From positions 96,001-160,000 of IMG/VR virus record IMGVR_UViG_3300023179_000011: 64,000 nt of DNA. One strand, 5' to 3'. The DNA is from a virus. Every line of letters starts with the position of its first letter. Positions within the stretch are counted from its first letter, which is position 1. Of the stretch, positions 5,287 to 63,262 are shown in pieces. The notes under the pieces are model-generated. The model was not told the DNA's origin, ran no database searches, and saw only the letters and a program-made list of their open reading frames with translations. Made by a program: the position numbers and the translations under genes.

Positions 5287-6108
5287 TTAAAAATTGCCCT
5301 GCGTATATTGTTTATCGAGCATCGCTTGAATCTTGGCCGCGCGTTGACTTACCGCGCCCGGCGTGATATTTAATCGGCGCGCAATTTCTTGCGTGCTTGT
5401 TTTTCTTCGCCCATTTCGGCCGAGCGTCATATCTGCAATTAACTTGTCAACCGGGCCGAGATCTTCGTAAACAAAGTTAAACCAAGCGTCGGCTGATCGG
5501 TTACTGTTTGGAATCGTGCTGGCGACATCGCCGCCATAGCTTTCTTCGTCGGTGACTTCGCGCGTCGTCATACCCTCTGACACTGGCTGGTTAAACGCGC
5601 GTATTTTTTGAATGCGGCGTTTTGACAAACCGGTGTGATCGGCCAGTTCGTCGTCGGTAGGGTCGCGACCTAGCTGGTCGTATAGCTCCGATTCGCTCTC
5701 TGTTAGCCGGCCGTAATCAAGCCCGACTTGCTCAGGAATCGAAATGATGTTTTGCGCCTGTGCAGACATGCGGCGCAAACTCTGCAGCTGTGACAGCAGG
5801 TGCGTGCGCACATTGCCACGTTGCGGATCGTAGCTATCCAGCGCCTTGAGTGCCATAAGCCGCGCCTTAGATTTAATTGTCGGGCTGGCGTTTTGTCCGG
5901 CGTAGCTCATCACGGCCGTGTCAATAACCGGCTGAAGTGTTCCTAGCAGCGCCGTATTTGTTTCCGGCGTTTTAGTGTGCTGCCACTGAGCGTACGCGTT
6001 ATCAAAGTCGGTACTGACGCCGGTCGGCCTACGGGTCGAGAAGGGCGCCGGTACGTCGCCCAGAATAGACGGCATGCCCGCTGGCGTACTGGTTTTGTTA
6101 TCAGCCAT
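5287..6108 (-). CDS. Sigma70-family RNA polymerase sigma factor
   Basis: Region 2-like 'LKALDSYDPQRGNVRTHL', region 3 'LGRDPTDDELADHTGLSKRRI', region 4 HTH 'STQEIARRLNITPGAVSQ'. Confidence 0.85.
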   Translation of the reverse strand: MADNKTSTPAGMPSILGDVPAPFSTRRPTGVSTDFDNAYAQWQHTKTPETNTALLGTLQPVIDTAVMSYAGQNASPTIKSKARLMALKALDSYDPQRGNVRTHLLSQLQSLRRMSAQAQNIISIPEQVGLDYGRLTESESELYDQLGRDPTDDELADHTGLSKRRIQKIRAFNQPVSEGMTTREVTDEESYGGDVASTIPNSNRSADAWFNFVYEDLGPVDKLIADMTLGRNGRRKTSTQEIARRLNITPGAVSQRAAKIQAMLDKQYTQGNF

Positions 6109-31948: not shown

Positions 31949-33334
31949 TTACACCAAACCGCGAGCATGAATCTGTGATTCGAGATTGTTTTTTAACGCT
32001 TCAGCGCGAATCTTTTCCATTTCAACAAGCTGCTTAATATCAAAATCAGCCAGCTGACCAGCTTCAAGACGCTTGCGCAGCAACGCCTGCATAGCAGCGC
32101 CAGATCCAGTGAAGTTCGGCGCAATCTCAGCGATTTGATTGTAAGCCGTTGCAATCTCGTGCGGATCGTAGCCGGAGATTACAGGGTCGTTCAAAATTAA
32201 ATCGTTTAGCACGCCGCGCGATTTAATCTGCTGTAGTTTGTTCTCGTGCTCGGCATCTGACATGCGCATATACGCTTTTTGTTTTTGCGCCAGCGGATTA
32301 GTAGCTTTTTCTTCGTTAGCGCCCATCTCACTTGCGATGCCCTTGGGGCTCATGAGCTTACCGAGGTGCCCCATCGTCCCGCTGTACGATGTCAGCGGCG
32401 GAGCTGATTCCGTATCTGGTTTTTTTTTATCTTTAACCGCCGCCACCTTAAGGGCGAGCGGCGCTGTTTTCGGATCATGCAGAATAGAACCGGTAACCGT
32501 CGCGGGCGCGCTCTTTTTTTCAACAGTCGGTTGGTTTAGCGCAGCCAACTTGCTCGCGGCGTCGTTGCGCAGCTCGACGGCTTTGATCACATTTTCAACA
32601 AGCGTCACGACAGGTAGAGAACCAAAAAAGTTCTCGTTTGTGGCGGCTTGTTTTGTGAAGTGCGGATAGACGGCAGCGATCTTGTTTAATGTTGAAACGC
32701 CGATGTCGCCAAGCCGTAACCCGACTTCGCGAACAGCGTCGGAAAACGACATGTTGCCGGGCACGCGAAAATATTGCGCCAACTCTTCCATGGCCGAAGC
32801 CGCTTTGTGGTGGGAAACTGTCGCCAGCCGCCGCACCTCGTCAGCCTCGCGACGCGTGGCCTGCTTTTCGCTATAAGCCCGCCGCGCCGCAGAGTGGTCG
32901 TCGCGCGGTGGCGGTACATATGTGGGCGCAGGTAGTACGCTCTTCGCGGCAGCGGCTTTGTTTAAGCTTTCATTCCGTCGGGCGATAAACCCACGCGGCG
33001 ACACAGCGTACTCAGTCGAGATGATGCTGTTATTTGTTAATTCAGCAGAGGTTTTGACGTTTTTCGGATAAAGCGCATCCATGACGACGTTAACATCGGC
33101 GAGCTGGAAATCTGCGGCTTTTTCCAGCGTTGTCTCGCCCAGTTCGCGCTGCTTGTTTGTGCGTCCGGTGTTATAGGCGTGCACCATGAGATTGATGTGC
33201 CCAGCAGGAATTCCGGCGTCACTTGCGCTTTTGATAATAGCGGCGTTTGGCGTAGACCCGTCGTTGACCAGAGTGGCCGCACGCTCAATTGCGCTCAGCA
33301 ATTTTTGCTCAGCTTCTTTACTTAATGCCCGCAT
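31949..33334 (-). CDS. Putative internal head / core protein
   Basis: 461 aa, helical, with repeated K-x-A motifs (IKSAS, EKAAD, NKAAA, TKQAA, LKVAA). Confidence 0.55.
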   Translation of the reverse strand: MRALSKEAEQKLLSAIERAATLVNDGSTPNAAIIKSASDAGIPAGHINLMVHAYNTGRTNKQRELGETTLEKAADFQLADVNVVMDALYPKNVKTSAELTNNSIISTEYAVSPRGFIARRNESLNKAAAAKSVLPAPTYVPPPRDDHSAARRAYSEKQATRREADEVRRLATVSHHKAASAMEELAQYFRVPGNMSFSDAVREVGLRLGDIGVSTLNKIAAVYPHFTKQAATNENFFGSLPVVTLVENVIKAVELRNDAASKLAALNQPTVEKKSAPATVTGSILHDPKTAPLALKVAAVKDKKKPDTESAPPLTSYSGTMGHLGKLMSPKGIASEMGANEEKATNPLAQKQKAYMRMSDAEHENKLQQIKSRGVLNDLILNDPVISGYDPHEIATAYNQIAEIAPNFTGSGAAMQALLRKRLEAGQLADFDIKQLVEMEKIRAEALKNNLESQIHARGLV

Positions 33335-37120: not shown

Positions 37121-39001
37121 TCAAGGCTTCCACCCGCTTGTTGAGCCTGTTACGCCAAATTGCTCTCCCTGAGCTAAAGCAGGTACATAACTGCTACCCG
37201 CGGTATCGCTGCTTAAACCACGCTGTACGCTGTTCATAAGCCCTTTTTCCTGATACGAGCCCAACATGCGGGTCATCCAGTCAGGGTCGTTTGAGATGTT
37301 TGCCATGCCGCGCACCATTTCTGGCTGGAACGGCGGCGGTTCTTTATGCGCTTGAATTGTTTTAACGCCATATTTGTTTAAGTTTGTCAGCACGTTTTTA
37401 CCGATCTTTGTGCCGATTGAATAGTGCAACACGGGTTTTTCTAAATAGTGCCCGGTTAACGTGTTTGGCGCGGCCGATACGCTACCTTCTCGCGGCGTCC
37501 AATTACGCTCAATAGCGGAGTAAGGCACTACGTCGTCAGGCACGTAATCGCCGTATTCGTCGGTCAGGCGTACATGATTTACAAGTCCGCGCGCCAGTAG
37601 TTCGATGTTGCGGCGATGGGCTGTAATACCGCTGTTACCCATGACCTGCCGCATAGCTTGCACAAAATAACGACGTCCTTCGCCTACGCCTTTGTGCCGG
37701 ACAATTTCTGCTGGATTTGGCATACCCTCCGATATAACGTCACCAGCTTCAAGCTCATCGCCCTTTTTGACCGAAAGATTTCTCTCTGTCGGAACGTAGT
37801 GGTCCTGACCGTTAATCTGCACATAGTGGCCGCCCTGCGGAGCCGGACGAACTTCCTGCACACGGCCGTCTAGCTGCGCGTGCACGGCGCCGTCTGGGTA
37901 TTTCTTCGGGACCTGTACAAGCGCGTTGAGCGCTTTAAAACCCGAAATCGCTCCCGCGCCGCCGACACCGCCAGAGTGCTTCGAGCTGATCTGGCTTTGC
38001 GTGACTGGTTCCGACAGCGCCTGTGCTGCCGCGATACCCACATAATCTCCAACAGGCGGTAAACGCCCCTTTTCCCTGTAACCCACATCTTTCGCATAAA
38101 CACCGCCGTCCCCGGGGCCGCCAACAATCGGGCTGCGAACTAAGATATCTTTGGCGCCACTTTCCTTCAGATCCCGAAGTATCTTGGGCGTCAAAATTGT
38201 GTTGCGTTTATATGGCCCGACGGCGCGCGCTAATAACGCGCCCTCGTTATCCGGGTCGTCTACGTCGGTTGGGTACCCGCGCTCTTCTAGCGCGGCGCGG
38301 CGCTCTTCGTCGGTGTCGTCGTCATCATCCGCGGTAACCAACAGCCGATGCGTCATCTGCGCCAACTGTTTACCATAGAAACCAGCGTCAGCCGTTGCGG
38401 TTTTAAGATCAATTACGCCCTTACGTGTTCCGAATGCGCCGGCAAAATACTCTACCGGCCGCAAGCCTTGGCTGTATCCGCGCAATACCGGAATTGGAAT
38501 TGGATCGCCGCGATGGTCGAGATACTGCATGTCGGCGCCAAGAATTGAGTTCAGCTGAAATTTGTTGCCGACCCCAGAGCCGGCAATCTGGTGCGCCAGC
38601 GGATTGTCCTGCCCCTCGGCCTCCTTGTACACCTTGTCGAGCAGTTCTTGTTGCGCAGCCTGCGCCAGTTCAAGCAATTTAATATTGCGCTGTTTTTCAT
38701 CGAGCCGTTTGTCGGCAAAAATGTCGCGCATTTGATTCTGTACGCGCAACTGAACGTGCCGCGCCGCTAGCGTCGGACGAATATCTTTGAGTCCAAACGA
38801 TAAACCGTTCGTCGTGTAACCGGCATCACGACCAATGTCGTGAAGCCGCTTCATCACGTCACGATATTTTTCTGGGTGGTTTTTTGCCAAATCGGTGGCG
38901 ACGTTTGACATCGTTTTTTTAGTTAATACGCGATCATAGTCGCGCATTTCGGGCGGCAACGCTTCATTAATCAAAAGTTGTCCAAGCGTCGTCTTTAGCA
39001 T
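37121..39001 (-). CDS. rpoC: RNA polymerase beta' subunit, C-terminal half
   Basis: 'KTTLGQLLINE' (region E), bridge helix 'AFGTRKGVIDLKTATADAGFYGKQL', trigger loop 'GIAAAQALSEPVTQSQISSKHSGG', 'HRRNIELLARGL'. Confidence 0.92.
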   Translation of the reverse strand: MLKTTLGQLLINEALPPEMRDYDRVLTKKTMSNVATDLAKNHPEKYRDVMKRLHDIGRDAGYTTNGLSFGLKDIRPTLAARHVQLRVQNQMRDIFADKRLDEKQRNIKLLELAQAAQQELLDKVYKEAEGQDNPLAHQIAGSGVGNKFQLNSILGADMQYLDHRGDPIPIPVLRGYSQGLRPVEYFAGAFGTRKGVIDLKTATADAGFYGKQLAQMTHRLLVTADDDDDTDEERRAALEERGYPTDVDDPDNEGALLARAVGPYKRNTILTPKILRDLKESGAKDILVRSPIVGGPGDGGVYAKDVGYREKGRLPPVGDYVGIAAAQALSEPVTQSQISSKHSGGVGGAGAISGFKALNALVQVPKKYPDGAVHAQLDGRVQEVRPAPQGGHYVQINGQDHYVPTERNLSVKKGDELEAGDVISEGMPNPAEIVRHKGVGEGRRYFVQAMRQVMGNSGITAHRRNIELLARGLVNHVRLTDEYGDYVPDDVVPYSAIERNWTPREGSVSAAPNTLTGHYLEKPVLHYSIGTKIGKNVLTNLNKYGVKTIQAHKEPPPFQPEMVRGMANISNDPDWMTRMLGSYQEKGLMNSVQRGLSSDTAGSSYVPALAQGEQFGVTGSTSGWKP

Positions 39002-39002
39002 G

Positions 39003-39242
39003 TCACGGCGTCCACATTATTTTCTGCATCGACTTCGGCTGAAACTCTGACACAACAACCGTTTTGTCGACACCCAGCGCGCGTAAAAGCGAATGAAACT
39101 CCTTTTCGCCGACTGTCGCATAAACAACAGCTTCGTCAACCTGAATAGCAACAAATAGCGGATTGCCGAGATCGTCTTCGACAATCACGCTATGTGCTTT
39201 TTTTTCGGTCGGCTGCAGGCTGTGTTGCGTTTTAACCAGCAT
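39003..39242 (-). CDS. Small hypothetical protein between the RNAP genes
   Basis: 79-aa ORF coupled to the beta' C-half start. Confidence 0.6.
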   Translation of the reverse strand: MLVKTQHSLQPTEKKAHSVIVEDDLGNPLFVAIQVDEAVVYATVGEKEFHSLLRALGVDKTVVVSEFQPKSMQKIMWTP

Positions 39243-39960
39243 TGTCCGCTATGCTCCGAATCATCGCGGCGATAGCGTTTGCTTTAATCTGCATTTGTGT
39301 CGGCGCGTTCGGATTAGAGACGCTGGGACCAAACGGCCGGCCGATTGAAGAAGCCGATTTTTCAGCGCGATCCCACCACGCGGCCTTCGACGGATCAGCC
39401 TCGGGTGGCGGAGCGTTCGGCGGCATTGGTCCGCCCGGAGGCATTGGTCCGCCCGGCGGTTGCATTCCACCCTGCGCGTTCGGGTCTTGCGGCGGCGGCG
39501 CCATCGGGCCGCCGGGAAGCGCTGTTTCAGCCGGCGGCGCGCCAGTCGTACCGGGGGGTAACACCAGAGACTCCGGCGGCACCTGAACACCCATCGCGTT
39601 CATGATGGCGGTAAGTTGCTGCTGCATGTTGTACAAACGATAGTCGAGCATTTGCATCATTTGCTCGGGTTTAAGTTTTTGCTGCGCGCCAGCAGGGGCT
39701 GCGCCCGGAGCGGCGGGTGCGGCGGGCGCTGCGGGAGGTGCAGCGGGAGGCGCCATTCCCATAGCCGCAGGATCCACTGGCGGTGCAGCTGCTGCAGCAA
39801 CAGCAGACGGATCGGCCGGCGGAACAGCCCCCATGGCGGCTGGATCAACCGGCGGAGCACCACCAGCAGCAGCGGGATCCACCGCCGCTCCGGGCACTAA
39901 TGCGGATTTTTCAAAGCGCGCCTTCGCCAGCGCAATGAGTTCGGGGTTTACCGTGAACAT
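39232..39960 (-). CDS. Pro/Ala/Gly-rich hypothetical protein
   Basis: GGAGG ribosome-binding site; FEKSAL and AEKSAS flank low-complexity arms and a central helix. Confidence 0.65.
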   Translation of the reverse strand: MFTVNPELIALAKARFEKSALVPGAAVDPAAAGGAPPVDPAAMGAVPPADPSAVAAAAAPPVDPAAMGMAPPAAPPAAPAAPAAPGAAPAGAQQKLKPEQMMQMLDYRLYNMQQQLTAIMNAMGVQVPPESLVLPPGTTGAPPAETALPGGPMAPPPQDPNAQGGMQPPGGPMPPGGPMPPNAPPPEADPSKAAWWDRAEKSASSIGRPFGPSVSNPNAPTQMQIKANAIAAMIRSIADNAG

Positions 39961-39980
39961 ACAACCTCCATGTTTAACGC

Positions 39981-42900
39981 TTACGTATTATCTTCCACAA
40001 TATGAACCGGGGTGTCCACCTCTATTTCGCCGCGGCGGTATGCCTGTACAGCGTCCTGCTTGCTACGAAACACACGTGGTTTGGCTTTTTTACTAATCCG
40101 GCTAGACGCTAAGTATAACCCGGTTTGGTAGTCTTTGTTAGGAACGTAGTGCGCGCGAAACGTCGATGTCGCGAACAAATTCTTGCTCGGCAGCATTTTT
40201 TCAACGGCTTCTTTCGCGGCGTCTTCTGTGCTTGGAACGTGATACTGCATCGCATCACCGTCAAAGTCGGCGCCAAACCCTTTGGTGATTACAGGGTTCA
40301 CTTCCATGACTTTGTTTTTAGTTAACTTGGGATAGAAAGCCATCATACCGTAGCGATGAAGTACCGGGGCGCGGTTGATAACAATCGGCCGCGACGACAT
40401 CTGCTGATTTAACTCAGCAAACGCTTCTTTGTTTTTATCTTCAACGGCCTGCATAGCTTGCATGCGCGGAAGGCCGCGGCGAACAAGCCCCCGAACAACG
40501 AACGGCTTGTAAATATCCCACGCTTTCTCTTCTGGCAGCGCAACTTCATCCATATCAAGGTCGGGATTTGGTGTAATGACGGCGCGACCGACAAGGTCTA
40601 CCGTCGAACTGAGCAGCTTGCGCTGAACAGTGCCGTATTTTGGCGAGTTACCAAACACGTGGCGTAGAAAACCTTTGACGTTGCGCTCGACGTTTTTAGG
40701 CTGCTGCGGCTCACCCAATCCGGTAACAGCCTTCATCGAGTCATACATGCTCAGCCGTTCGTCGCCGTAGTCGGCTAGCGCGCCAGAAGCTTCTTTCAGC
40801 GTATCGTTAGCGTCGAGCAATTCTTTGTACAGATAATTTGCGTCGGCCACGAGCGGTAACTTTTTGCTGCCCATCGTGCTCACGGGGCGGAAGAGCGGCG
40901 GCAGAACAGGGACTTTACTAATCATCCAGTCCTGCGGATGCACACCAGTTGTTTCGGCGCTCTTTAAAAAGCCGAGCCTGCGCACGGCGGCGTCGCGAAG
41001 CGTCTTGCGGCCGGATTTGATATCTAACCGCGCCTGCTCGATAGCTTTCGGTAGATTAATGCGCTCTAGGGCCGCCTTAATCGCGCCCGGACCTGTCTTG
41101 TCGCCCAGCTGCTCGCGGCCGGCCAGCACGCCGCGAAACTGTTTTTCTGTCATGCCGAGCACGCGGCGAATAGGATCTTCCATCACCGGGTTCGGCATCG
41201 GTTCATGCAGCGTGATCTTGCTCCACCGATTACCGCCGTGGCCGCCAGTTAGCATCTCGTCAAACAAGCCGCCGGCGATAGGTTTGAGCCGCCCCTTCCA
41301 GTCGACGGTCTCGGAGCTTTTGAGTTCCCGCGGGCCGGCGAGTTCGTCCACGTCTTTGTCGGTCATAGCCATCAGGTTCGAGCGCGTCCCCTTGCGAACA
41401 ACGTTGATACCAGACGCTTTGAGTTGATTAACAAACTTTTCGTAAACGTGCGGGACTTTGGGCAGCGGCGGCGTATACCCGGCCATGAACTGCGACCAGT
41501 ACTCGGGGTTCGCTTGCCCGCGCACCATTTTGGCGTCTCGAATAACTTTGCCGGCGCCGTGAGAAAGTAACGCACCCAGATCAAGCATGCCGACGCGCTT
41601 GGCGCCTTCGCTACCGCCCTTGGCCGGCGTTCCTTCGGCCGTGTAAGCGCCCATCGCGCGCCCCTGCGCTTTGGATTCGCTTGTATGGTGCAGCTTCATA
41701 AAAAAACGTGTGCCCGTCAGTACGCCGCCAATCTTTCGACCGGTTTCAGGGTCGATTACGTCCTCGGTGTCTGACAGCCCGTGTTTAGCGAGTTCTTTCT
41801 GCGCAAACTCGATCAGGTCGTTTTTGTTATCAAAGTCCTTGAGTTTGTACGGCGAGCCAGTCTGCGCGGCTACTTTGCCCAGTGCGGCCTCAATGACCTG
41901 TGCGGGATTAATGCGGCTGATAAGGCCAAGCGGCGACACGAGTACTTCAAACGCGTTACCGTCGCGATCCTTGGGCATCTGATCGTCGGGCACTATTTCG
42001 GCCACGACGCCCTTGTCACCAAAACGCCCGGTGAGTTTATCGCCGACGTCCATGGGCGCTTGATTTTTTACAACAACGCTTACGCCTTTTTTTGTGTGCA
42101 TGACGTCGGTCACAACACCCGGCGCGTGGTGTTCCCACGTAATCGTCTCGTTGGTGAAGTTGCCGGCACGCCCCCGGTGCACTTTACCGTACACCGTGTC
42201 CTTTTTCTTGGCGACAAGCACAAGCGGATCGCCAAATTTAACTTCAGTGCCTTTTTTAATCGCGCCGTTGTCGTCGAAGTTATCAAGAAACTTTTTATCG
42301 TATTCAGTTGGAAACAAACTCACGAACGCCTTCTTGCCAACGTGAGTATTGTCGTCCCACTCGGCTTCGTGCTGATACATGTGCTCAGACGTCAGCCGCT
42401 TGGAGGCAGATTCAGAGATAACAACAGCGTCTTCGTAGTTCTTGCCGCGAAACGGCAAATACGCCGTCCGCAAGTTCAGGCCAAGAGCCGCGCTACCGTT
42501 CTGATCAGTAAAGTTGGAGCGCGCCAGCAGTTGGCCGGGCTCAACAACATCACCCGGCTTCACGAGCGGCGTCTGATGTAAAAAAGTCTTTCGGTTGTAC
42601 GGCATCTCGTTATACAAATCGATTGTCTTTTTGTTGCCGTCTTTGTCGCGCAGCACAATACCGTCTGGCGTCACATCGACGACTTGCGCGCGTTCGGTCG
42701 CGCGAGTCGCGCCCAACTTCTCGCCCATCTCGTCTTCGTGCGAAACTTTGTCGTCATCGGCTTTCGCAGACTGCAGCAGCGGCGCCTCGGCGTTTACGAG
42801 TGGCAACGCCTGCGTAAACATTCGGCTACCCATGATCACGCGATGACCTTTGATCATCGATTTGATGGGCACCATGTTGGTCAGCGCAGAGAACGTGCTA

Positions 42901-44384
42901 TCCATGTTCGGCAAACCAAATTGCGCTTCTTTTCGCGGCACATACTTCAACTTGCCGTTTACGAGCGCCGCAACGACAGGCAAACCATTGTCTTCTTCGC
43001 CGGGGAACACGAGCGGCGTGTCGGCCAGTTCCTGCGGCGTCTTGTAGATCTTGTCGCCGGTTTTCATATCAATAACCGGCGTATAAATTTTGCCGTCGGA
43101 GCCCTTCATGGCGCCGCGGGCAAAACGCATATCAACGCCCACCTTGCCAGACTCAGGTGTGCGCAGGTAGTCAATAAACCCAAGATGACTTGGTTGCACG
43201 GAACGTGATTCAGCCGGTACAGCATCAAGCGACCCGATGCCGCCTTCGCCCATACGAGTGACACGAGTCTGGTGATCAAAAATTTCGGCTGGGTTGATCT
43301 CTTCAAGACTCGATCCAAGGCCGCTGCCAATAAGCGCAGCCGAAATTGCTTTATCAAACACACCCGACGGAATGTGATCAATTGATTTCTTGGCGGTGGC
43401 TTTCCAAAGCAATTTGTTAAGCGATTGCCGATCTTTCGTGAACCGCTCGGCAATCAAATCTTCTGGCCCGACGACCGACTGATAAACCATGTTGTCTCGG
43501 TCGTCGCTTTCTGTTTCGCGCCGATTGACGGCAATGAGTTTCTTTGTGATCGCCAAAATTGTTTCGGGCGTCATGTTTTTGTATTCAGCGCCCAGTGTTC
43601 GACGCGTAACTTCTGGATCTAATTCCGTCTTGGCAAATTCAGCTGCAATAGCTTGCGCTTTCGCAATAGCGTCTGCGCCGGCAACCGGTTTGTTCACAAG
43701 TCGGGCGTAGATCTTGTCCATCGTGCCGGCGTCGCCCTTCTCCATGTTGACGGCGGTAATCTCGTTGCCCCACGCTTTGCGAATGTCTTGATCAGACACG
43801 CCCATGGATTTGAGCAGCGGCATAAGCGGTATTTGTGCCTGCCCGATGCTAATCTTGAACACGCCGGTTTTGGGGTCGAGGAAGTAACGATGTGATCGGC
43901 CTTTACCGGGTAATGTGTTTACGTGCGCTTCAATTTCGCCGTTGTCTTTTTCGCGCGTAAACACGCCGGGACGCAAACGCATCTGATGGGCAAGTGTGTA
44001 CTCGACGCCGCCGTTGACGAATGTGCCCGAGTCAGTGAGATACGGCACGTGAGCAATCGTGGCACGGCGCTGACCAACCGGCTGCCCGGTTTTGTTATCA
44101 GTAAGCGTCCACGTACCCTGCAACCGGCGGGCAAGCGTCCCTCTAGAAAGGACAGCTTTCTTCTGATCTGACCGTGTAAAACGTTCAGGCCCTGAGTACC
44201 CAACGTCTTGAAGCTGCAACGTATACAGATCGTTTTGCAGCGGCTTGAGATTTTGCGCGCTATTCAGCGCCTGATTGAAAATGTTTTCTCGCATTAAACC
44301 AACGTCGCCAAACGTGCGCATTGTCGGCGCAACTGGCGCTGGCATGGGCGTCGGCTTTAATTCGGGCAGTTCGGGGGCTGGCAT
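39981..44384 (-). CDS. rpoBC: RNA polymerase beta / beta' N-half fusion protein
   Basis: Beta motifs 'GTFVNGGVEY', 'TPESGKVG', 'NYEDAVVIS', 'GDKLTGRFGDKGVV', 'KLHH', followed in frame by beta' motifs 'VPVLPPLFRP', 'VDLVGRAVI', 'NRAPVLHR' and the catalytic 'GADFDGDAM'. Confidence 0.95.
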   Translation of the reverse strand: MPAPELPELKPTPMPAPVAPTMRTFGDVGLMRENIFNQALNSAQNLKPLQNDLYTLQLQDVGYSGPERFTRSDQKKAVLSRGTLARRLQGTWTLTDNKTGQPVGQRRATIAHVPYLTDSGTFVNGGVEYTLAHQMRLRPGVFTREKDNGEIEAHVNTLPGKGRSHRYFLDPKTGVFKISIGQAQIPLMPLLKSMGVSDQDIRKAWGNEITAVNMEKGDAGTMDKIYARLVNKPVAGADAIAKAQAIAAEFAKTELDPEVTRRTLGAEYKNMTPETILAITKKLIAVNRRETESDDRDNMVYQSVVGPEDLIAERFTKDRQSLNKLLWKATAKKSIDHIPSGVFDKAISAALIGSGLGSSLEEINPAEIFDHQTRVTRMGEGGIGSLDAVPAESRSVQPSHLGFIDYLRTPESGKVGVDMRFARGAMKGSDGKIYTPVIDMKTGDKIYKTPQELADTPLVFPGEEDNGLPVVAALVNGKLKYVPRKEAQFGLPNMDSTFSALTNMVPIKSMIKGHRVIMGSRMFTQALPLVNAEAPLLQSAKADDDKVSHEDEMGEKLGATRATERAQVVDVTPDGIVLRDKDGNKKTIDLYNEMPYNRKTFLHQTPLVKPGDVVEPGQLLARSNFTDQNGSAALGLNLRTAYLPFRGKNYEDAVVISESASKRLTSEHMYQHEAEWDDNTHVGKKAFVSLFPTEYDKKFLDNFDDNGAIKKGTEVKFGDPLVLVAKKKDTVYGKVHRGRAGNFTNETITWEHHAPGVVTDVMHTKKGVSVVVKNQAPMDVGDKLTGRFGDKGVVAEIVPDDQMPKDRDGNAFEVLVSPLGLISRINPAQVIEAALGKVAAQTGSPYKLKDFDNKNDLIEFAQKELAKHGLSDTEDVIDPETGRKIGGVLTGTRFFMKLHHTSESKAQGRAMGAYTAEGTPAKGGSEGAKRVGMLDLGALLSHGAGKVIRDAKMVRGQANPEYWSQFMAGYTPPLPKVPHVYEKFVNQLKASGINVVRKGTRSNLMAMTDKDVDELAGPRELKSSETVDWKGRLKPIAGGLFDEMLTGGHGGNRWSKITLHEPMPNPVMEDPIRRVLGMTEKQFRGVLAGREQLGDKTGPGAIKAALERINLPKAIEQARLDIKSGRKTLRDAAVRRLGFLKSAETTGVHPQDWMISKVPVLPPLFRPVSTMGSKKLPLVADANYLYKELLDANDTLKEASGALADYGDERLSMYDSMKAVTGLGEPQQPKNVERNVKGFLRHVFGNSPKYGTVQRKLLSSTVDLVGRAVITPNPDLDMDEVALPEEKAWDIYKPFVVRGLVRRGLPRMQAMQAVEDKNKEAFAELNQQMSSRPIVINRAPVLHRYGMMAFYPKLTKNKVMEVNPVITKGFGADFDGDAMQYHVPSTEDAAKEAVEKMLPSKNLFATSTFRAHYVPNKDYQTGLYLASSRISKKAKPRVFRSKQDAVQAYRRGEIEVDTPVHIVEDNT

Positions 44385-44387
44385 CGA

Positions 44388-45245
44388 TCACCCCGCCTGC
44401 GATTGCTCAACTTGTTTCTTCAGCGCGATAATCTCGTCGGGATCAACGTACGTCGGTAGAATGCCGGCGATACGGGCCTTCGACTTTGCGGCTTCTTCAA
44501 CTGCTTTTGCGCGAGAGCGGTCGCGCGCCCGATCGTACATCAGTTTGGCTGCTAAACCACCAAGGCCCAGTCCCGCAGCGACATATGTGCCGCCGAGCGC
44601 CGCGGGTACGCGCTTGGCTGTGTCGTATGCGCTCGTTAACCAGTCCAGCAACGCCTGCTTCTCGGCCGCCGCTTTTTCGCTCGCCACGTCATAAGCGTTG
44701 TCGAGCGGTTTCGCCGCGCCGCCTGTAAGCGCGTCGTAATACTCTTTTTCTGCGGCGGCAATTTGCTCTTGCTGGTCGCGTTTCTTTTTACGTTTGTGCA
44801 GCGCTTCAATCAGTTTATATCCGCCAAGTCCGCCAAGCGTCGCCGCGCCAAATGTAGCGCCAGTGCCGAACGACGAACGGATGACGTTTGGGTCATATGA
44901 GTTTTGGCTTTTATTTGTCGCGGGCGTAAAGGGGCGTAAAAAGCTGAGCACCGAATCGGGCAGCATTTTGCCGACACCCTCGGTGATGTTGTCGTACACC
45001 CCGGCTACTTTTGTCTCAGTAATCTTGGGTGTATCTTCTTCGTCTTCTTTTTCTTCTCGCGGTTTGTTTAACGCCTGAGATAGTCCGCGGGCCAGATAAT
45101 AAAGACTAGCGGCACCAGCGCCAGCGCCAAGGCTGCCAAGACCAGTGCGGATAATACGATTGCCCCAGAAACGCTGGTAATCTTGGGCTGTAGGTTGGCC
45201 AACAGCGGGCGCGGGTGGTGCAGCATTGTTTGCGAGTTTTTCCAT
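44388..45245 (-). CDS. Glycine-zipper putative internal head or ejection protein
   Basis: MEKLA, TKVAG and EKAAAEKQAL motifs each precede a hydrophobic G-x-x-x-G segment. Confidence 0.55.
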   Translation of the reverse strand: MEKLANNAAPPAPAVGQPTAQDYQRFWGNRIIRTGLGSLGAGAGAASLYYLARGLSQALNKPREEKEDEEDTPKITETKVAGVYDNITEGVGKMLPDSVLSFLRPFTPATNKSQNSYDPNVIRSSFGTGATFGAATLGGLGGYKLIEALHKRKKKRDQQEQIAAAEKEYYDALTGGAAKPLDNAYDVASEKAAAEKQALLDWLTSAYDTAKRVPAALGGTYVAAGLGLGGLAAKLMYDRARDRSRAKAVEEAAKSKARIAGILPTYVDPDEIIALKKQVEQSQAG

Positions 45246-50864: not shown

Positions 50865-51875
50865 TTAACGCCCAAACATACTGGGGACGATGGCGTGCAT
50901 CATGCCGCCCCATAACCCCATATCTTGTAACTTTGCCTGCCCCGCTGGTGTTAAACCGGCGAGCGCTGATAAGGCTTTTCCGGCGACCGTCGCGGTTGCC
51001 AAACCGACGCCGGCAGACGCAATACCGTTAATTACGTCTACTGGCCGAATAATAGGCGAGCGCATGTTGGTGCTGATACCGCTCATTAGCCCGGTGGCTG
51101 CGGCAGCAAACTGCGGCGGCGTATGGTTTTGAAACCCGCGGTACATTCCCATATTCACATCCTGCCACGCCGCGCTGTTGAACTGCGGCACCGACACTGT
51201 TGGAGCAAACATCGGGTCGTCTGCAAACGACTTCTTGGTCATCTTAGCTTCGTAGGGGTAGACGACCGGTGTTTTGTTATTTGTAAGAAGACCGCGCAAC
51301 ATGCTCGTACGGAGCGCGCGCGCATTGGCGTACGAATTCAACCCGGCGACGCCAACACCGCTCAGAGCGCCCATCAGGCCGAGCGTGCGGCGCAGTTTGC
51401 CGCGCTCCAGATAGCGTGCTGGAAAAACTTGCTCTGCCAGCGCGCCCGCGCCATATCCGAGGCCGCCGGCGAGCAACCCGGTCATCAGCCCGTTCGACAG
51501 CGGCGTGGGGCCGCCGAGCATGGCGTTGCCGGTGTTCCACACGGTAGGCAGGCCGGGTACAAGCGAACCGACTTTAATGATGATCTCTTCTGCCGGATCT
51601 GGCTGTGCCGGCCCGCGCGTCACAATTGCAACGTTATAACCAGCTTGCTTCATCTCGTCGGCGTACGCGGCGCTTGCTGTTTTGTTTGTCTCCGCTGGCG
51701 CATACAGCGTGACCAAACCGACGTCTGGCTCCCACGTCGCGACCGTCGTCGCCAGCAGGCCCGCGGCGAGCGCGGCGTGTTCGTGAGCGGTTTTAAGCTG
51801 AAACGCCGCCGGAAGCAGCGTTGAAACACGCTCCGGGACAGCCTGCCACTCGTAAATAGTCGCGGTTGCAGTCAT
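50865..51875 (-). CDS. Glycine-zipper putative internal head protein
   Basis: LKTAH and NKTAS motifs; several G-x-x-x-G hydrophobic segments. Confidence 0.55.
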   Translation of the reverse strand: MTATATIYEWQAVPERVSTLLPAAFQLKTAHEHAALAAGLLATTVATWEPDVGLVTLYAPAETNKTASAAYADEMKQAGYNVAIVTRGPAQPDPAEEIIIKVGSLVPGLPTVWNTGNAMLGGPTPLSNGLMTGLLAGGLGYGAGALAEQVFPARYLERGKLRRTLGLMGALSGVGVAGLNSYANARALRTSMLRGLLTNNKTPVVYPYEAKMTKKSFADDPMFAPTVSVPQFNSAAWQDVNMGMYRGFQNHTPPQFAAAATGLMSGISTNMRSPIIRPVDVINGIASAGVGLATATVAGKALSALAGLTPAGQAKLQDMGLWGGMMHAIVPSMFGR

Positions 51876-51881
51876 AGCGCG

Positions 51882-52151
51882 TCAGCTTAAACCAAGTAAA
51901 AAACGAACAAACACCAAAATCCACGCTAATACGCCACTGATAGCAAAAAAAACAACAACCGCGCTTAGGCTTATCACGCGCCCAAGCTGCTGAATTGGAA
52001 TGTCTTTCAACAGTCGCCACGCTTTGAGGTAATCAATCGCGCCCGGCTGCTTCGGGGGCGTGGGCGCAGGTGGAGTGTTTGGTTCCGGCGTGACGGGATC
52101 TTTTTTACGTCCGAGCAGCCCGCGCAGCCGGTCGAGTAGCGAGTCAGCCAT
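51882..52151 (-). CDS. Small protein with a C-terminal membrane helix
   Basis: Likely start MADSLL at 52151; C-terminal 'LSAVVVFFAISGVLAWILVFVRFLLGL'. Confidence 0.6.
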   Translation of the reverse strand: MADSLLDRLRGLLGRKKDPVTPEPNTPPAPTPPKQPGAIDYLKAWRLLKDIPIQQLGRVISLSAVVVFFAISGVLAWILVFVRFLLGLS

Positions 52152-53805
52152 GGTTCTTTCCCCAGTTTTTGATTGTGTCGAAAACATCGTTGCCGTAAAG
52201 CTGGGTTGCTTTATCGAACATGTTCATCTGCGGCAGCGTTCCAGTCGCGGCAGCTTGGGCCATTTGATAGCGATACTGCGGATCGAGCATTGACCGGTAC
52301 TGGTGCGCTTTCATTCTCGACGCCAGAATAAAGTCGCCGCGCTGTTTGGCTTTTAACAGATGATCAACCACATTTTCGTACACGGGTTTGTTGTGGTCGA
52401 ACACAAACGGTGTGCGAAAATTTAATAAATTGCCAAACTGCTGCGCATACACACTGTTCTCGGCCGCTTTGACCTGCGAACCGATGACACCGCGCGGAGC
52501 ATGAAACCGAAACTTTGTCGGCGTATGGGTGATACCCTTGTACTTTGGCTTTGGATCATCAACGTGCCAGTCCTGCGGCGATTGCGCGATTAATCGCCGC
52601 AAGATTTCATGCTTGCGGTCGTATTCGCGGCGGTCGGAGTGCGTTTTCGCGCTACGCAGCTCGTCAAGAATGCTGGGTTTCTTTTTTTCTGGCTGCGCGG
52701 CGGATGATTTGATGCCGCCGATGGTCGTATTTGAAATCGGCGGCGACGCGGGCAGGGCTGAAGAATTAACAACGGGGGTTGTTCCGCCGTTTGGTTTTGA
52801 TTGTTGCTGCATCCCGCGGCGAATCTGACCGGGCGGTGTTGTCACAATTTTAAAGGCTTTGCCGTGCCACTGATCAAAATCAATTGGATCCTGAGCACCC
52901 TTCTCTATTTCTTTGACTTTTTCGTAGTACTGCGGATCTTCGGACAGGTGATCCTTGGCAATTTCTTTGGCAACTTGATCGTTTCTTGTGTGTTCGTGCT
53001 CATGTTTAGCTCCTTCGGCTAACGAGTCAGCAGAAAATTCCCGATCGGGTAAATTATCACCTTTTCCGCCCGCTAACAGGTCTTTTTGTCCCGAGCGGGA
53101 AAAATTTGTACTTTTGGCCGCCGTATTATCCCGTACGGGAGTGTTGCTAGCGGCTTTCAGCTCTCCCCTACTGATGGGGTTACTAAACCGATGCCCTTCG
53201 TCACTTTCGGCAGGGGTTTCGTAACCCTTGGCTTTGCCGTTGTCGAGAAGAATGCCCTTGCGGCGGGCGGCTACCGTGATGTGGAACGGATGATCGTCGT
53301 TCGGGAGCGCGGATAAGCCGTAGCTCTTGCGAAGCGCCGATAAAGCCGGGCTGCTGACCTGAATCGCCCAGACTTTGCTGACGCCGTCGACGTTTTTGAC
53401 GTCAATCTCTTTCAGCCCGCCGAGCGTGTAACCAAACATGTGGCCGCGCTCGTTAATTTTGTCGGCGCCAATAGACGCAACCTCGTCCGCCGTCATCACC
53501 GATATATGCGCATTTACAATGTGCGCTTCGACGTTTGGGACGTTGAAGACGCCAGCCGTCGGAAGTTCGGTTCCGGGCTCAACCAGCGCGTCGAACACAC
53601 CACGGACAAGGGCGTTCGGTACAGATAACAAAAGCCAGCCGGACTTGGCGAGATAGAGCCGGCCGGCGAGCGGGTAACTTGTGGCCGCCTGCTTGTTGCC
53701 GCCACGATACAGCCAGCCGAGCGCGTTGCCGGCGGCGTAGGCAGGATGCTCGCGAAAGTATTGCGGGTCCCAAGCGATCGGATCGAGTGCTGAGAGGCTG
53801 TCCAT
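52144..53805 (-). CDS. Multidomain protein with an N-terminal 2H phosphoesterase and a DUF5661-like module
   Basis: Two 2H motifs 'AHISV' and 'FHITV'; later 'EGAKHEHEHT...AKEIAKDHLSEDPQYY'; domains separated by K-x-A linkers. Confidence 0.75.
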   Translation of the reverse strand: MDSLSALDPIAWDPQYFREHPAYAAGNALGWLYRGGNKQAATSYPLAGRLYLAKSGWLLLSVPNALVRGVFDALVEPGTELPTAGVFNVPNVEAHIVNAHISVMTADEVASIGADKINERGHMFGYTLGGLKEIDVKNVDGVSKVWAIQVSSPALSALRKSYGLSALPNDDHPFHITVAARRKGILLDNGKAKGYETPAESDEGHRFSNPISRGELKAASNTPVRDNTAAKSTNFSRSGQKDLLAGGKGDNLPDREFSADSLAEGAKHEHEHTRNDQVAKEIAKDHLSEDPQYYEKVKEIEKGAQDPIDFDQWHGKAFKIVTTPPGQIRRGMQQQSKPNGGTTPVVNSSALPASPPISNTTIGGIKSSAAQPEKKKPSILDELRSAKTHSDRREYDRKHEILRRLIAQSPQDWHVDDPKPKYKGITHTPTKFRFHAPRGVIGSQVKAAENSVYAQQFGNLLNFRTPFVFDHNKPVYENVVDHLLKAKQRGDFILASRMKAHQYRSMLDPQYRYQMAQAAATGTLPQMNMFDKATQLYGNDVFDTIKNWGKNHG

Positions 53806-60166: not shown

Positions 60167-62482
60167 CTATTCGTAGTAAAAAGGATTACGAACATTTGGA
60201 ACATACGAACGCGCTGTTTGGGCAGCGTTGGTTACCCCGCGCCGCACATCATTTGCTGTATTTACGACCGCATTCCGTGCCGTACCGTATGCGGTTCCCG
60301 CGGCGTCGCCAATCGCTGCGCCGGTGTTGTGAATGCCTTGGCCGATTGCTTGCGGAACTGCCGCGGCAGCTTGCGCGGCGTTATTTACACCACGCCGCAC
60401 ATCATTGGCTGTGTTTACAACAGCGTTGCGTGCCGCGCCATATGCTGTTCCCGCGGCGTTGCCAATTGCAGCGCCGGTGTCGTGAATGCCTTGCGCGGCG
60501 GCGGCGCCTGTATTGTAAATACCGCGGCCGGCGGCCATTGGTACTGCCGCAACAGCTTCACCAACACCCGAACCGAATTGCTGCGCCGAGCTAATGTACG
60601 GATCCACGACAGGTGCTGTAGCGCGATACGCACCATACGTCGCGCCGGCAGCAATCGGCACGGCGGTCGCAGTGCGGGCGGCGTTCATCATTGTGCTGCC
60701 CGGAACCTGTGTGCCAGCCCAGCGAGCGACGTTTCCGGCGCCACGGGCAACCTGACCGGCGCCGTACATACCGGCGCCCGTTGCCGCGCGAATGCCGCCA
60801 CCGACAGCGTTACCTACGCCGCCGCGCATCATTTGTTGCGCCCCGCCGCGAGCCATCTGCGCGCCGCGATTTACGGCAGCCGAGCCCAGCTCGCCGGCCG
60901 CGGCGCCTGTCGCACGACTTATCGTGCGCGCCGTACCAGCCATGGCGCGGCCGCCCCCGCGGGCCGTCGCGCCGAGACCTTTGCCGAGAGCTTTGACACC
61001 AGCAGTAAAAAGACTGCTCTCTTTTTCACCGTGCGACTGCTGCGCGTTTGTTGCGTCTGTCGGCACAGGACTGAGCGCCGAGCGTTGCTTGTCGTCAATG
61101 ATCTTATTGCTGCCGCGCGCACTCGGCGTGCAGCTCATTTCCGTTGTGCCGCGAGGCGCACTGGAGCGCGCTTTTTTCTCTTTCTTATCTTTCTTCTTGC
61201 TGCCGACCGGGCGACACGAATCATTGCTGTAGGGCTTTTTGCCCGGCACCGGCTCATACCCTGTCCAGCACCGACCAGCTGCTTTGCCGAACTCTAGCGC
61301 CGAGCCCTGCTTGATACCCGTTGTGCTCGCGTTTTGCAGCTGCGGCATGAGCTGTTCAATGATATTTCTATTGTGGGTCAAAAAGTCGTACATCTGCCGC
61401 GCTTGTCCGCTGCTCATGTTGGGATCCCGTCCCATAAGCATCGTGGCGCCGAACTCGGGGCTCAGCTGGCTTAGAGCGTTGATTTGATCCATCGGGCCGC
61501 GGCCGCCGCCCAACATGCTGTACAAGCCGTTGGCGCCCTGACCAACCATCCGGCGTGCGCCGTCGCCAAACATGCCAGCTCCGGCGGCGCCCAGACCAGC
61601 TGCGCCAAGGCCCAGCGCGCCAAGACCCGCGCCTAAACCGGTGTTCCCGCGGCCGCCCATGAACGCGCCGGCGAGCGCCAGCGGAACACCGGCGCCAATT
61701 GCGTAACGCGCCTCGATCGGCAGGCTGTTCCACATGCCCATCAAGCCGCCGTTATTGGGATTCGCTTCGGCGTGCTGCGCAGTAGACATCTGTGTATTCA
61801 TCTGCTGCGCGCCAATATTTTCTGCCGTCGGTTCGCTGCCGATGCCCATAGCTTTGCCGGCGTAGTGCATGCCAGCTGCGCCTGCGCCCGCACCGACCGC
61901 TAAATTCAGTGGATTGCGCGCGTTTGTCATTGCGGACGAGCCGCCGCCCATCCACTCAGGAAGGTGCTTCGCGGCGGCTTGTGTGCGACCGATCGTGCGA
62001 TCGCCCCAACGTTGGCCTGCCGGCACCGCGGCGTCACTCATGAAACTAGAGACAAAATCGTCAGCACGATTCAGACCGCGGCGCATGGTATTCATCGTGC
62101 GTTGACCAAGACCGCCAACAGCGTCAACCGCTTGGCCGGCGAGTCGTCCGGGCGTGCCGTGATACAACGACGCGGCCTGCCCTTGGGCTGCGCGAGCCGC
62201 CGCGTCAAGACGGCTTGGCCCTGTCGGTTTCGCGGTGAGGGGCACAGCTTTGTAACGGTCTTTGAGCGGAATGGTCAGCGGATCGACTACGTTTTGGCGC
62301 ATGCCGCGTTGATAACCACGTGTGGCGCTCGTGCCGCGATTGACGAGTTGTTTTCCGCCGCGCACAGCGTCATCGGCAAGACCTGTTACGGCTTTGGTCC
62401 CGGCGCCAAGAATATCGCGCAGTAACTTATTTGCTTCTTTTTCGTGCCCGCCGATGTGTTGACCAAACTCATATGCGTTCAT
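60167..62482 (-). CDS. Large Gly/Ala-rich putative internal head polyprotein
   Basis: MNAYEFG...EKEA N-terminus, glycine zippers, a 'CWTGYEPVPGKKPYSNDSC' module and a C-terminal tandem repeat. Confidence 0.65.
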   Translation of the reverse strand: MNAYEFGQHIGGHEKEANKLLRDILGAGTKAVTGLADDAVRGGKQLVNRGTSATRGYQRGMRQNVVDPLTIPLKDRYKAVPLTAKPTGPSRLDAAARAAQGQAASLYHGTPGRLAGQAVDAVGGLGQRTMNTMRRGLNRADDFVSSFMSDAAVPAGQRWGDRTIGRTQAAAKHLPEWMGGGSSAMTNARNPLNLAVGAGAGAAGMHYAGKAMGIGSEPTAENIGAQQMNTQMSTAQHAEANPNNGGLMGMWNSLPIEARYAIGAGVPLALAGAFMGGRGNTGLGAGLGALGLGAAGLGAAGAGMFGDGARRMVGQGANGLYSMLGGGRGPMDQINALSQLSPEFGATMLMGRDPNMSSGQARQMYDFLTHNRNIIEQLMPQLQNASTTGIKQGSALEFGKAAGRCWTGYEPVPGKKPYSNDSCRPVGSKKKDKKEKKARSSAPRGTTEMSCTPSARGSNKIIDDKQRSALSPVPTDATNAQQSHGEKESSLFTAGVKALGKGLGATARGGGRAMAGTARTISRATGAAAGELGSAAVNRGAQMARGGAQQMMRGGVGNAVGGGIRAATGAGMYGAGQVARGAGNVARWAGTQVPGSTMMNAARTATAVPIAAGATYGAYRATAPVVDPYISSAQQFGSGVGEAVAAVPMAAGRGIYNTGAAAAQGIHDTGAAIGNAAGTAYGAARNAVVNTANDVRRGVNNAAQAAAAVPQAIGQGIHNTGAAIGDAAGTAYGTARNAVVNTANDVRRGVTNAAQTARSYVPNVRNPFYYE
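60212..60560 (-). repeat. Intragenic tandem repeat, 153-bp (51-aa) period, about 2.3 copies
   Basis: CGCCGCACATCATT occurs at 60240 and 60393; protein unit '...GIHNTGAAIGxAAGTAYGxARNAVVNTANDVRRGVxNAAQxA'. Confidence 0.85.
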
Positions 62483-62630
62483 GAGTGTTCTCTTCCTGTT
62501 TTGTTATTTGTGTTGGCGCTGGATAACTACACCGACCGCCTTCGCAACATGTTTCCAAAATAATGTGACAGAACGGACATACCAGCTTGCCGCGAATTTC
62601 AATGCCGCGGCTTTCACACTGCGGGCACAT
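62469..62630 (-). CDS. Small Cys-rich zinc-ribbon protein (53 aa, not in the ORF track)
   Basis: ATG overlaps the upstream stop (TAATG); MCPQCESRGIEIRGKLVCPFCHIILETCCEGGRC... Confidence 0.75.
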   Translation of the reverse strand: MCPQCESRGIEIRGKLVCPFCHIILETCCEGGRCSYPAPTQITKQEENTHERI

Positions 62631-63262
62631 TACCACTCAAACTCCACCGGCTTGCGCGTCTTATAGCTGAAGTTAACATCGAGTGGCGATTGAAAGCGCA
62701 CGTTAGGTAGCGGAAGTTTGGGCGCCACGGCAGCGGTACCGCCGAGCAGTCCAGCCGCCGCAAGTGTCGGAACGCCGAGCGGAGCATCGCCTACTGCGCG
62801 CACACCCTTACCAACAGCCTGCAGCCCCTCGCCGGCTAGGTTCACCGCATGCCCGGCGCCGCGTACCGCAGAGCCGCCTAGTCTCATGCCGTGACCAAGC
62901 ACGCCGCGAATATCGCGGGTCGTGCGCGTGCTGCCGCTACCAATGTTGTTAATCATGCGCTTACCGGTCGTCTGCATGCCGCGACCTGTGCCCAATAGCA
63001 AGCCGCCAAGACCAGTCGAGTTACCAAGGCTAGTCCCGTCTTTAGGGCTGAACGTGGGCCGAGCCTTCGAGCCGACAATCTCGCCGGCGCCCTGTATGCC
63101 TCGGCCGAAACCTTTGACGACGCTCTGCGCGCCCCGATTGATCGTCTGCGCCCCACGGCCGATGCCAGACGCCGCGTTGGCAAGCCTCGCAACAATCTTT
63201 TCAAACCCGCCCGCCTGTTTTTCTAGCCGGCCGACGCTGTATCCAAACTCATACGCGTTCAT
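62630..63262 (-). CDS. Gly-rich putative internal head protein
   Basis: MNAYEFGYSVGRLEKQA N-terminus, then a basic Gly-rich body; AAGGAG ribosome-binding site. Confidence 0.65.
   Translation of the reverse strand: MNAYEFGYSVGRLEKQAGGFEKIVARLANAASGIGRGAQTINRGAQSVVKGFGRGIQGAGEIVGSKARPTFSPKDGTSLGNSTGLGGLLLGTGRGMQTTGKRMINNIGSGSTRTTRDIRGVLGHGMRLGGSAVRGAGHAVNLAGEGLQAVGKGVRAVGDAPLGVPTLAAAGLLGGTAAVAPKLPLPNVRFQSPLDVNFSYKTRKPVEFEW

Follow-up and report, generated by a model that had tools for sequence, protein, structure and literature searches.

The uncultured lake phage behind IMG/VR virus record IMGVR_UViG_3300023179_000011 (199,845 bp, rated 98% complete) encodes a multisubunit RNA polymerase (RNAP), both large chains of which come from the 64,000-nucleotide stretch analysed here (positions 96,001 to 160,000 of the record, henceforth the window). 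One of the chains is beta joined in frame to the N-terminal half of beta', and the other is the C-terminal half of beta', encoded by a gene of its own. Alpha, omega and the two zinc sites of beta' are regarded as near-universal in RNA polymerases of the cellular type. We are confident that the two genes described here make a functional two-chain phage polymerase that lacks both zinc sites, and the layout is a family-wide and not a singular one. To the whole package, i.e. the sole bacterial-type polymerase of its phage, with a two-chain core, its own sigma factor, a putatively alpha-free assembly, packaging in the virion and an adaptive loss of zinc and cysteine, we give a probability of about 0.55, self-sufficiency and delivery in the virion being plausible components of it.

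Two chains with conserved catalytic elements

The larger gene, P0001 (39981..44384, minus strand), codes for one chain of 1467 amino acids (aa) without a single cysteine, identified by Pfam, PDB and BLASTP searches and by alignments. Beta takes up approximately residues 48–1000, and beta' extends from about residue 1005 to just beyond the catalytic double-psi barrel. The Pfam domains Rpb2_2, Rpb2_3 and Rpb2_6 (beta) and then Rpb1_1 and Rpb1_2 (beta') all fall on this one chain (Rpb2_6 at 1.6e-49, Rpb2_3 above the Pfam cut-off, Rpb2_2 under it), and BLASTP against E. coli aligned it to RpoB 81–1337 and then to RpoC 160–540. Among solved structures it matched bacterial beta chains (E 8e-67) and beta' chains (residues ~140–560, 4e-48). 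The top PDB matches of both polymerase chains were scattered among Firmicutes, Thermus, Actinobacteria and cyanobacteria with similar scores. Alignment with the C-terminus of E. coli RpoB and the N-terminus of RpoC placed the junction at 'GINVVRKGTRSNLMAMTD' (41358..41411, minus strand, residues 992–1009). It is essentially linker-free, the beta C-terminus meeting approximately RpoC residue 20: beta ends in '...SGINV' and about 10 residues later there follows 'MAMTDKDVDELAG...ETVDWKGRLKPIAGGLF', the counterpart of E. coli beta' ~20–60. The fused chain itself stops at the equivalent of approximately E. coli beta' 555.

The catalytic Mg-binding motif reads GADFDGD (40254..40274, minus strand, residues 1371–1377), with the three aspartates of NADFDGD kept and the universal asparagine replaced by glycine. 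Across relatives D1373, D1375 and D1377 are invariant, and the asparagine position is variable in the family (G, N, A, T or S). Also present in P0001 are NRAPVLHR, which includes the equivalent of Arg425, the sigma-binding clamp helices (conserved in the alignment) and, in beta, the second double-psi barrel with the lysines of GDK..GR.G.KG, where 'GDKLTGRFGDKGV' aligns with E. coli 'GDKMAGRHGNKGV'. Five contact positions are altered in the rifampicin pocket (Q513S, F514S, D516E, S531T and L533M in E. coli numbering), for which the aligned equivalent of cluster I is 43239..43328 (minus strand, residues 353–382). Since these are known resistance or contact positions, we infer that the enzyme is probably insensitive to rifampicin.

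The remainder of beta' is the product of P0002 (37121..39001, minus strand; 626 aa, no cysteine), which carries region E, the bridge helix, the trigger loop and regions G–H. Its Pfam domain is Rpb1_5, it matches PDB beta' chains at E 1.4e-36 with alignment to Mtb beta' 663–1187, and BLASTP aligns it to E. coli RpoC 723–1286. An AlphaFold model (pLDDT 79.5) gave Foldseek matches to solved beta' chains at E ~1e-27. In alignment its start, MLKTTLGQLL, corresponds to E. coli 'LKDTTVGRAIL' at ~575, so that beta' is broken at about E. coli 555–575. The bridge helix 'GTRKGVIDLKTATADAGFYGKQL' is present. The trigger loop reads TQSQISSKH (37976..38002, minus strand, residues 334–342) where E. coli has TQLTMRTFH: the His936 equivalent is kept, Arg933 is replaced by Ser and Met932 by Ile, and the 'SSKH' is conserved family-wide. 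DFDGD, NRAPVLHR, the bridge helix and the trigger-loop histidine are kept in relatives down to ~40% identity.

Cyanobacteria also divide beta', with the break at about 615. When the cyanobacterial gamma chain (624–626 aa) is aligned with the final 200 residues of P0001, the match ends at gamma residue ~558, which puts the cyanobacterial break ~65 residues further on than that of the phage. The comparison rests on this gamma-chain alignment, as no cyanobacterial chains came up when residues 1–150 of P0002 were searched against the PDB. An earlier, model-made reading of the window (hereafter the sequence-only reading) had proposed that beta runs in frame into beta', that GADFDGD replaces NADFDGD, that a separate gene begins at region E and that the trigger loop keeps its histidine within QISSKH. 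All of this held in the alignments, as did a split point unlike the cyanobacterial one, the two breaks being near and not identical.

The same architecture in a large phage family

The beta' N-half was used as the query of a HMMER scan against 1.84 billion cluster representatives, and the best 150 clusters (at 50% identity) were considered. In all of them (45–61% identity) the beta' N-half match was the extreme C-terminal part of the protein. Lengths are mostly 1440–3350 aa, with about 20 shorter proteins that look like fragments. In IMG/VR at least 566 contigs encode a relative of the fused gene, a count that is a lower bound. We also compared 80 loci from family members. The gene order (fused gene, P0003, P0004, beta' C-half and an 801-aa gene) is fixed down to ~70% identity; at more distant loci the halves are 1–7 kb apart, with other genes in between, and both are present. 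Four isolates have the fusion, namely Salmonella phage Arash (gp206, with gp216 as the other half) and the Vibrio phages D69, D181 and D148.

Arash and the three Vibrio phages share the essential features of the enzyme. Their fused chains are 1525 or 1527 aa long, with 31–32% identity over 96% of the chain and the same break; a gene of its own encodes the beta' C-half, the chains lack the zinc ribbon and the trigger-loop arginine, a sigma factor is present and alpha is absent. Arash and D69 differ in keeping the four cysteines of the second zinc site, in the catalytic motif (AADYDGD) and in having no detectable P0004, and Arash has nine genes, on both strands, between the halves. In the Arash paper the two genes are called simply beta and beta', with no mention of fusion, split or zinc loss (PMC10585845), and we found no description of the fused and split layout in the literature.

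Many relatives have intein-like insertions, which bring the fused chain to 1800–3350 aa and the beta' C-half to 1000–1370 aa. They were seen in members P0126–P0274, at loci L042–L045, L069, L072, L080, L082 and L085 for the fused chain, and at L011, L055, L058, L060 and L082 for the beta' C-half. Some of the inteins lie inside the catalytic motif ('DFDGN-C...'), and inteins are the sole source of cysteine in those proteins.

The window derives from a metagenome assembly, and one might suspect assembly or gene calling behind the fused gene, the divided beta' or the lack of cysteine, or take the gene for a decaying pseudogene. Lake and freshwater metagenomes of several studies contain near-identical DNA, and contigs of one independent study span the fusion junction (40620–41752, contig X3), the P0001 stop with the P0003 start (39688–40432) and the P0004/P0002 boundary (37121–39301), in each case with 0 differences. 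The layout is common to hundreds of contigs and four isolate genomes, the catalytic residues are invariant, and mass spectrometry covered 100% and 89% of the two Arash chains with peptides. An artefact, a possibility that the sequence-only reading had itself raised, is thus refuted by the contig, family and Arash peptide results.

Loss of both zinc sites and of cysteine

In the fused chain the zinc ribbon has been cleanly excised. 'GGLFDEMLTGGHGGNRWSKITLHEP' (41199..41273, minus strand, residues 1038–1062) stands where E. coli beta' has ~60 residues, C70, C72, C85 and C88 among them. The conserved flanks GGLF and W-S-x3-L-x-EP are linked by 'DEMLTGGHGGNR', 25 residues span them, and none of the four cysteines is there; E. 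coli ~66–98 is replaced by 'TGGHGGNRW' between GGLF and W-x3-L-x-EP. A strict pattern found the same short replacement (23–30 aa) in 119 of the 150 family representatives. Since it also occurs in Arash and D69, the deletion is, judging by this distribution, ancestral to the family.

The second site has lost its ligands by substitution and gap, the columns of C814, C888, C895 and C898 reading gap, G, Y and D. The position of the first ligand (E. coli DDC814G) is taken by the acidic tract 'TADDDDDTD' (38309..38335, minus strand, residues 223–231), and 'VRSPIVGGPGDGGVYAKDVGY' (38078..38140, minus strand, residues 288–308) stands for E. coli 'VRSVVSC888DTDFGVC895AHC898YG', with all three cysteines gone. 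The P0002 model is confident at the former site (pLDDT ~91 for residues 250–300). Among the loci compared, the four cysteines are retained only in Arash gp216, D69_0264 and loci L072 and L087. In a tree of the beta' C-half rooted with E. coli these four-cysteine lineages are successive basal branches and the zinc-free sequences form a single derived clade, a topology by which the second site was lost once, within the family and after the ribbon. The sequence-only reading had described both sites as Cys-free, with 'GGHGGNRW' for the ribbon, and alignment to E. coli found no ligand in either.

The depletion goes beyond the zinc sites. P0001 and P0002 have 0 cysteines in 2093 residues, in a genome whose predicted proteins average 1.87% cysteine (chance P ~7e-18), and in the zinc-free clade nearly every intein-free member has none in either chain. 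This pattern across the clade points to sustained selection rather than drift. The same genome also encodes giant Cys-rich open reading frames (ORFs), at genome positions 189555–194771 (1738 aa, 13.5% Cys) and 83435–88297 (1620 aa, 4.4% Cys).

A phage sigma factor and no recognisable alpha or omega

The presumed specificity subunit is a sigma70-family factor of 273 aa (5287..6108, minus strand), also without cysteine and homologous to Arash gp10 (BLASTP 1e-19). It was located through regions 3 and 4 and through gp10, the Pfam Sigma70_r2 model having had no match in the genome. Region 3 (Sigma70_r3, 1.6e-9), the helix-turn-helix of region 4 and a portion of region 2 are present; the protein aligns with residues 151–352 of B. 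subtilis SigA, and no other sigma was matched in the genome. A Sigma70_r3 protein was found in five of the five other complete family genomes tested. Arash has in addition a second sigma factor (gp196, OQ632216.1 120656–121693; 345 aa, 3 Cys), which is not on its virion protein list and for which BLASTP found no homologue in the genome described here.

As the sequence-only reading had noted for the window, genes for alpha and omega were missing. The entire genome of 199,845 bp, searched in six frames with PF01000, PF01193 and PF01192, gave no match at E<=1, whereas all 14 control genomes scored; PF01000 also had no match in five further complete family genomes. The genome appears to have one polymerase only, as the Arash gp206 query matched a single ORF.

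The genes between the two halves

Two small genes lie between the halves of beta', as had already been seen in the letters. P0003 (39232..39960, minus strand; 242 aa, Pro/Ala-rich, no cysteine) comes directly after the fused gene in every relative of at least 70% identity. P0004 (39003..39242, minus strand; 79 aa) has an 11-nt overlap with the P0003 stop and ends 1 nt short of the beta' C-half start. Neither had a Pfam or PHROG match. In 71 of the 80 loci the two RNAP genes flank an ORF of the P0004 family (70–95 aa), which mostly overlaps or abuts the start of the beta' C-half, and P0004 is a candidate small subunit or assembly factor. Its model (pLDDT 89.3) consists of five strands and one helix; comparison with the PDB gave no fold match (Foldseek best E 0.7, VIA-align best Z 2.1), and an Atlas feature search gave no usable match.

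P0004 is not universal in the family. With hhalign its profile showed no similarity to the small ORFs that D69 and Arash have upstream of the beta' C-half, and no homologue was detectable in Arash, D69 or L087. Nor did its gain coincide with the loss of the second zinc site, since L072 has both the four cysteines and P0004.

Evidence for a probable packaging in the virion

In mass spectrometry of purified Arash virions the fused gp206 gave the most spectra (3516, versus 1333 for the capsid protein), and gp216, the sigma factor gp10 and gp217 were detected too (PMC10585845). In the genome described here the polymerase genes lie among head genes: the 801-aa gene downstream resembles the structural gp218 of Arash, and the capsid gene is 10 kb away. 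The virion proteins of Arash are poor in cysteine (0 in gp10, gp217 and gp4, 1 in gp206), in contrast to its terminase (13 Cys) and second sigma (3 Cys), and the helicases are not Cys-poor either. Here the Cys-free set comprises both polymerase chains, sigma, P0003, an SNF2-family ATPase homologous to Arash gp217 (1094 aa, genome positions 164473–167757) and its neighbour, an HD-domain protein (686 aa, genome positions 161725–163785), the last two lying beyond the right end of the window (L096). On account of the Arash virion data, the cysteine pattern and the location among head genes, packaging of the polymerase in the virion is the best reading and a probable one. We found no description of cysteine depletion in ejected phage proteins in the literature.

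Other proteins of the window, all on the minus strand, are also free of cysteine (9099–13772, 31949–33334, 44388–45245, 50865–51875, 52144–53805, 62630–63262 and 230–862) and may be further head cargo or ejected proteins. They include a 1557-aa protein without a Pfam match, a 553-aa protein with a 2H phosphoesterase domain and the 285-aa product, with an apparent membrane segment, of the gene directly upstream of the polymerase. Three adjacent proteins (60167–62482, 62630–63262 and 63281–64009, minus strand) share an N-terminal leader, 'YEFG-x-x-[IV]G' followed by K-x-A.

Interpretation and alternatives

The sequence-only reading had suggested that fusion, early split and zinc loss together define a distinct minimal two-chain enzyme. 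The combination is real and conserved, with no published description that we could find. It is, however, a property of a large family and not of this window, and only the ribbon loss is family-wide. "Two-chain" may undercount, given that P0004 is translationally coupled to the beta' C-half and that a sigma factor is encoded in every complete genome tested, and "minimal", in the sense of independent of alpha, is suggested by the absence of a gene. The architecture is standard across a very large and biochemically unstudied phage family that includes four isolates.

We propose that chain 1 would supply beta together with the clamp's N-terminal part, the clamp helices for sigma binding and both catalytic double-psi barrels, chain 2 the bridge helix and trigger loop, and the phage's own sigma70-family factor the promoter specificity. 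The beta-beta' tether, possibly with P0004, could stand in for the assembly platform of the alpha dimer and for the chaperone role of omega. Polymerase, sigma and SNF2 ATPase would be packaged in the capsid, enter with the DNA and transcribe the early genes independently of the host polymerase. Loss of the ribbon, then of the second site, and of all cysteines would then be an adaptation to life as virion cargo, under pressures that might include an oxidising extracellular environment, the lack of a source of metal and perhaps the need to refold after passing through the tail. The fullest form of this idea, a self-sufficient, metal-cluster-free packaged holoenzyme of beta::beta'N, beta'C, sigma and P0004, in which the tether and P0004 replace alpha2 and omega and the loss of zinc and cysteine was selected for survival and refolding after ejection, is put forward tentatively, as less likely than not.

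Several observations weigh against the package as a whole. With Arg933 and Asn458, which contact the substrate in E. coli, both replaced, kinetics and fidelity may be unusual. A highly divergent alpha-like protein could escape Pfam, and the lack of an alpha gene is still compatible with the use of host alpha and omega. The two chains might form a working core on the host alpha dimer, perhaps with omega, made after infection and not self-sufficient, much as the fused Helicobacter enzyme uses these subunits. Such host subunits would be invisible in searches of phage genomes, the phage encodes a bacterial-type sigma, and its chains resemble bacterial beta and beta' (PDB chains at E 1e-67 and 1e-36) much more closely than phiKZ-type polymerases do. 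Against this stand the diversity of the hosts (Salmonella, Vibrio and lake bacteria) and an identity of only 25–30% to any bacterial polymerase, by which an alpha interface with each host would be harder to keep. Moreover, packaging of the enzyme, which the Arash data suggest, would require host alpha to be packaged with it, and other phage multisubunit polymerases function without alpha (PMC7598289). We consider dependence on host alpha unlikely.

Packaging itself is extrapolated from a single relative, of 32% identity. The Arash virion list includes ribonucleotide reductases and ligases, enzymes unlikely to be structural, and its authors allow for carry-over (PMC10585845). The 'YEFG...K-x-A' leader is absent from the polymerase, sigma and SNF2 proteins, and no packaging signal was found on the polymerase. 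Low cysteine is also no strict marker of virion proteins, because some clearly structural genes here contain it. One could therefore envisage a polymerase of middle or late genes that stays out of the virion, its detection in Arash being carry-over and its low cysteine due to drift or to resistance to oxidative stress inside the cell; as the genome has only one polymerase, this enzyme must in any case serve the late genes as well. Such a reading has to accommodate that gp206 outnumbers the capsid protein of Arash in spectra, that the genes lie in the head-gene block at every locus examined, and that the loss of cysteine is common to the sigma factor and the SNF2 ATPase, the Arash homologues of which were detected in virions, and not to replication or terminase genes. 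It seems to us quite improbable, and we retain the packaged enzyme as the preferred reading.

What makes the family valuable is that a plainly bacterial-type, presumably sigma-using enzyme seemingly does without alpha, omega, both zinc sites and any cysteine, in hundreds of natural variants. It amounts to a natural experiment on the purpose of the assembly platform and of the zinc sites, with intermediates (ribbon lost, second site kept) in the cultured phages Arash and D69. It also offers an attractive minimal system for structural work, in vitro reconstitution and orthogonal sigma-dependent transcription, and, next to the phiKZ, AR9, N4 and crAss types, it adds a further group, abundant in lakes and other waters, to the phages that bring a polymerase of their own.

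Comparison with known polymerases

In Helicobacter the C-terminus of beta is naturally fused to the N-terminus of beta' in one reading frame; that fusion includes the whole of beta' and keeps the zinc sites, and the enzyme uses alpha and omega, whereas the phage fusion ends after region D. Cyanobacteria and chloroplasts (gamma/RpoC1 and RpoC2) likewise divide beta' after the catalytic barrel, but beta is not fused, and in cyanobacteria zinc sites, alpha and omega are all present.

The polymerases of the phiKZ/AR9-type jumbo phages are phage-encoded multisubunit enzymes as well. They too have no alpha or omega and a beta' split after the catalytic barrel, and of the phiKZ/AR9 sets one is packaged and injected. 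They are associated with an SNF2-type helicase, and in the Bacillus phages with an HD domain as well (PMC7598289, PMC7824862). They consist of four to five separate chains, beta also being split, and reviews (2021, 2026), in which this is the only type of jumbo-phage polymerase covered, describe the polymerase-encoding jumbo phages as having no sigma factors (PMC7598289, PMC7824862, PMC13282480). The enzyme described here falls outside that class, with a beta that is whole and fused and with a sigma factor present, and its PHROG and tblastn matches to phiKZ/AR9-type phages were weaker than those to bacteria. Theirs are unfused, barely recognisable by sequence and served by gp68 or gp226 instead of a sigma70-family factor, whereas the enzyme of the window is plainly bacterial in sequence, made of one fused chain and one other, and accompanied by a factor of the sigma70 type.

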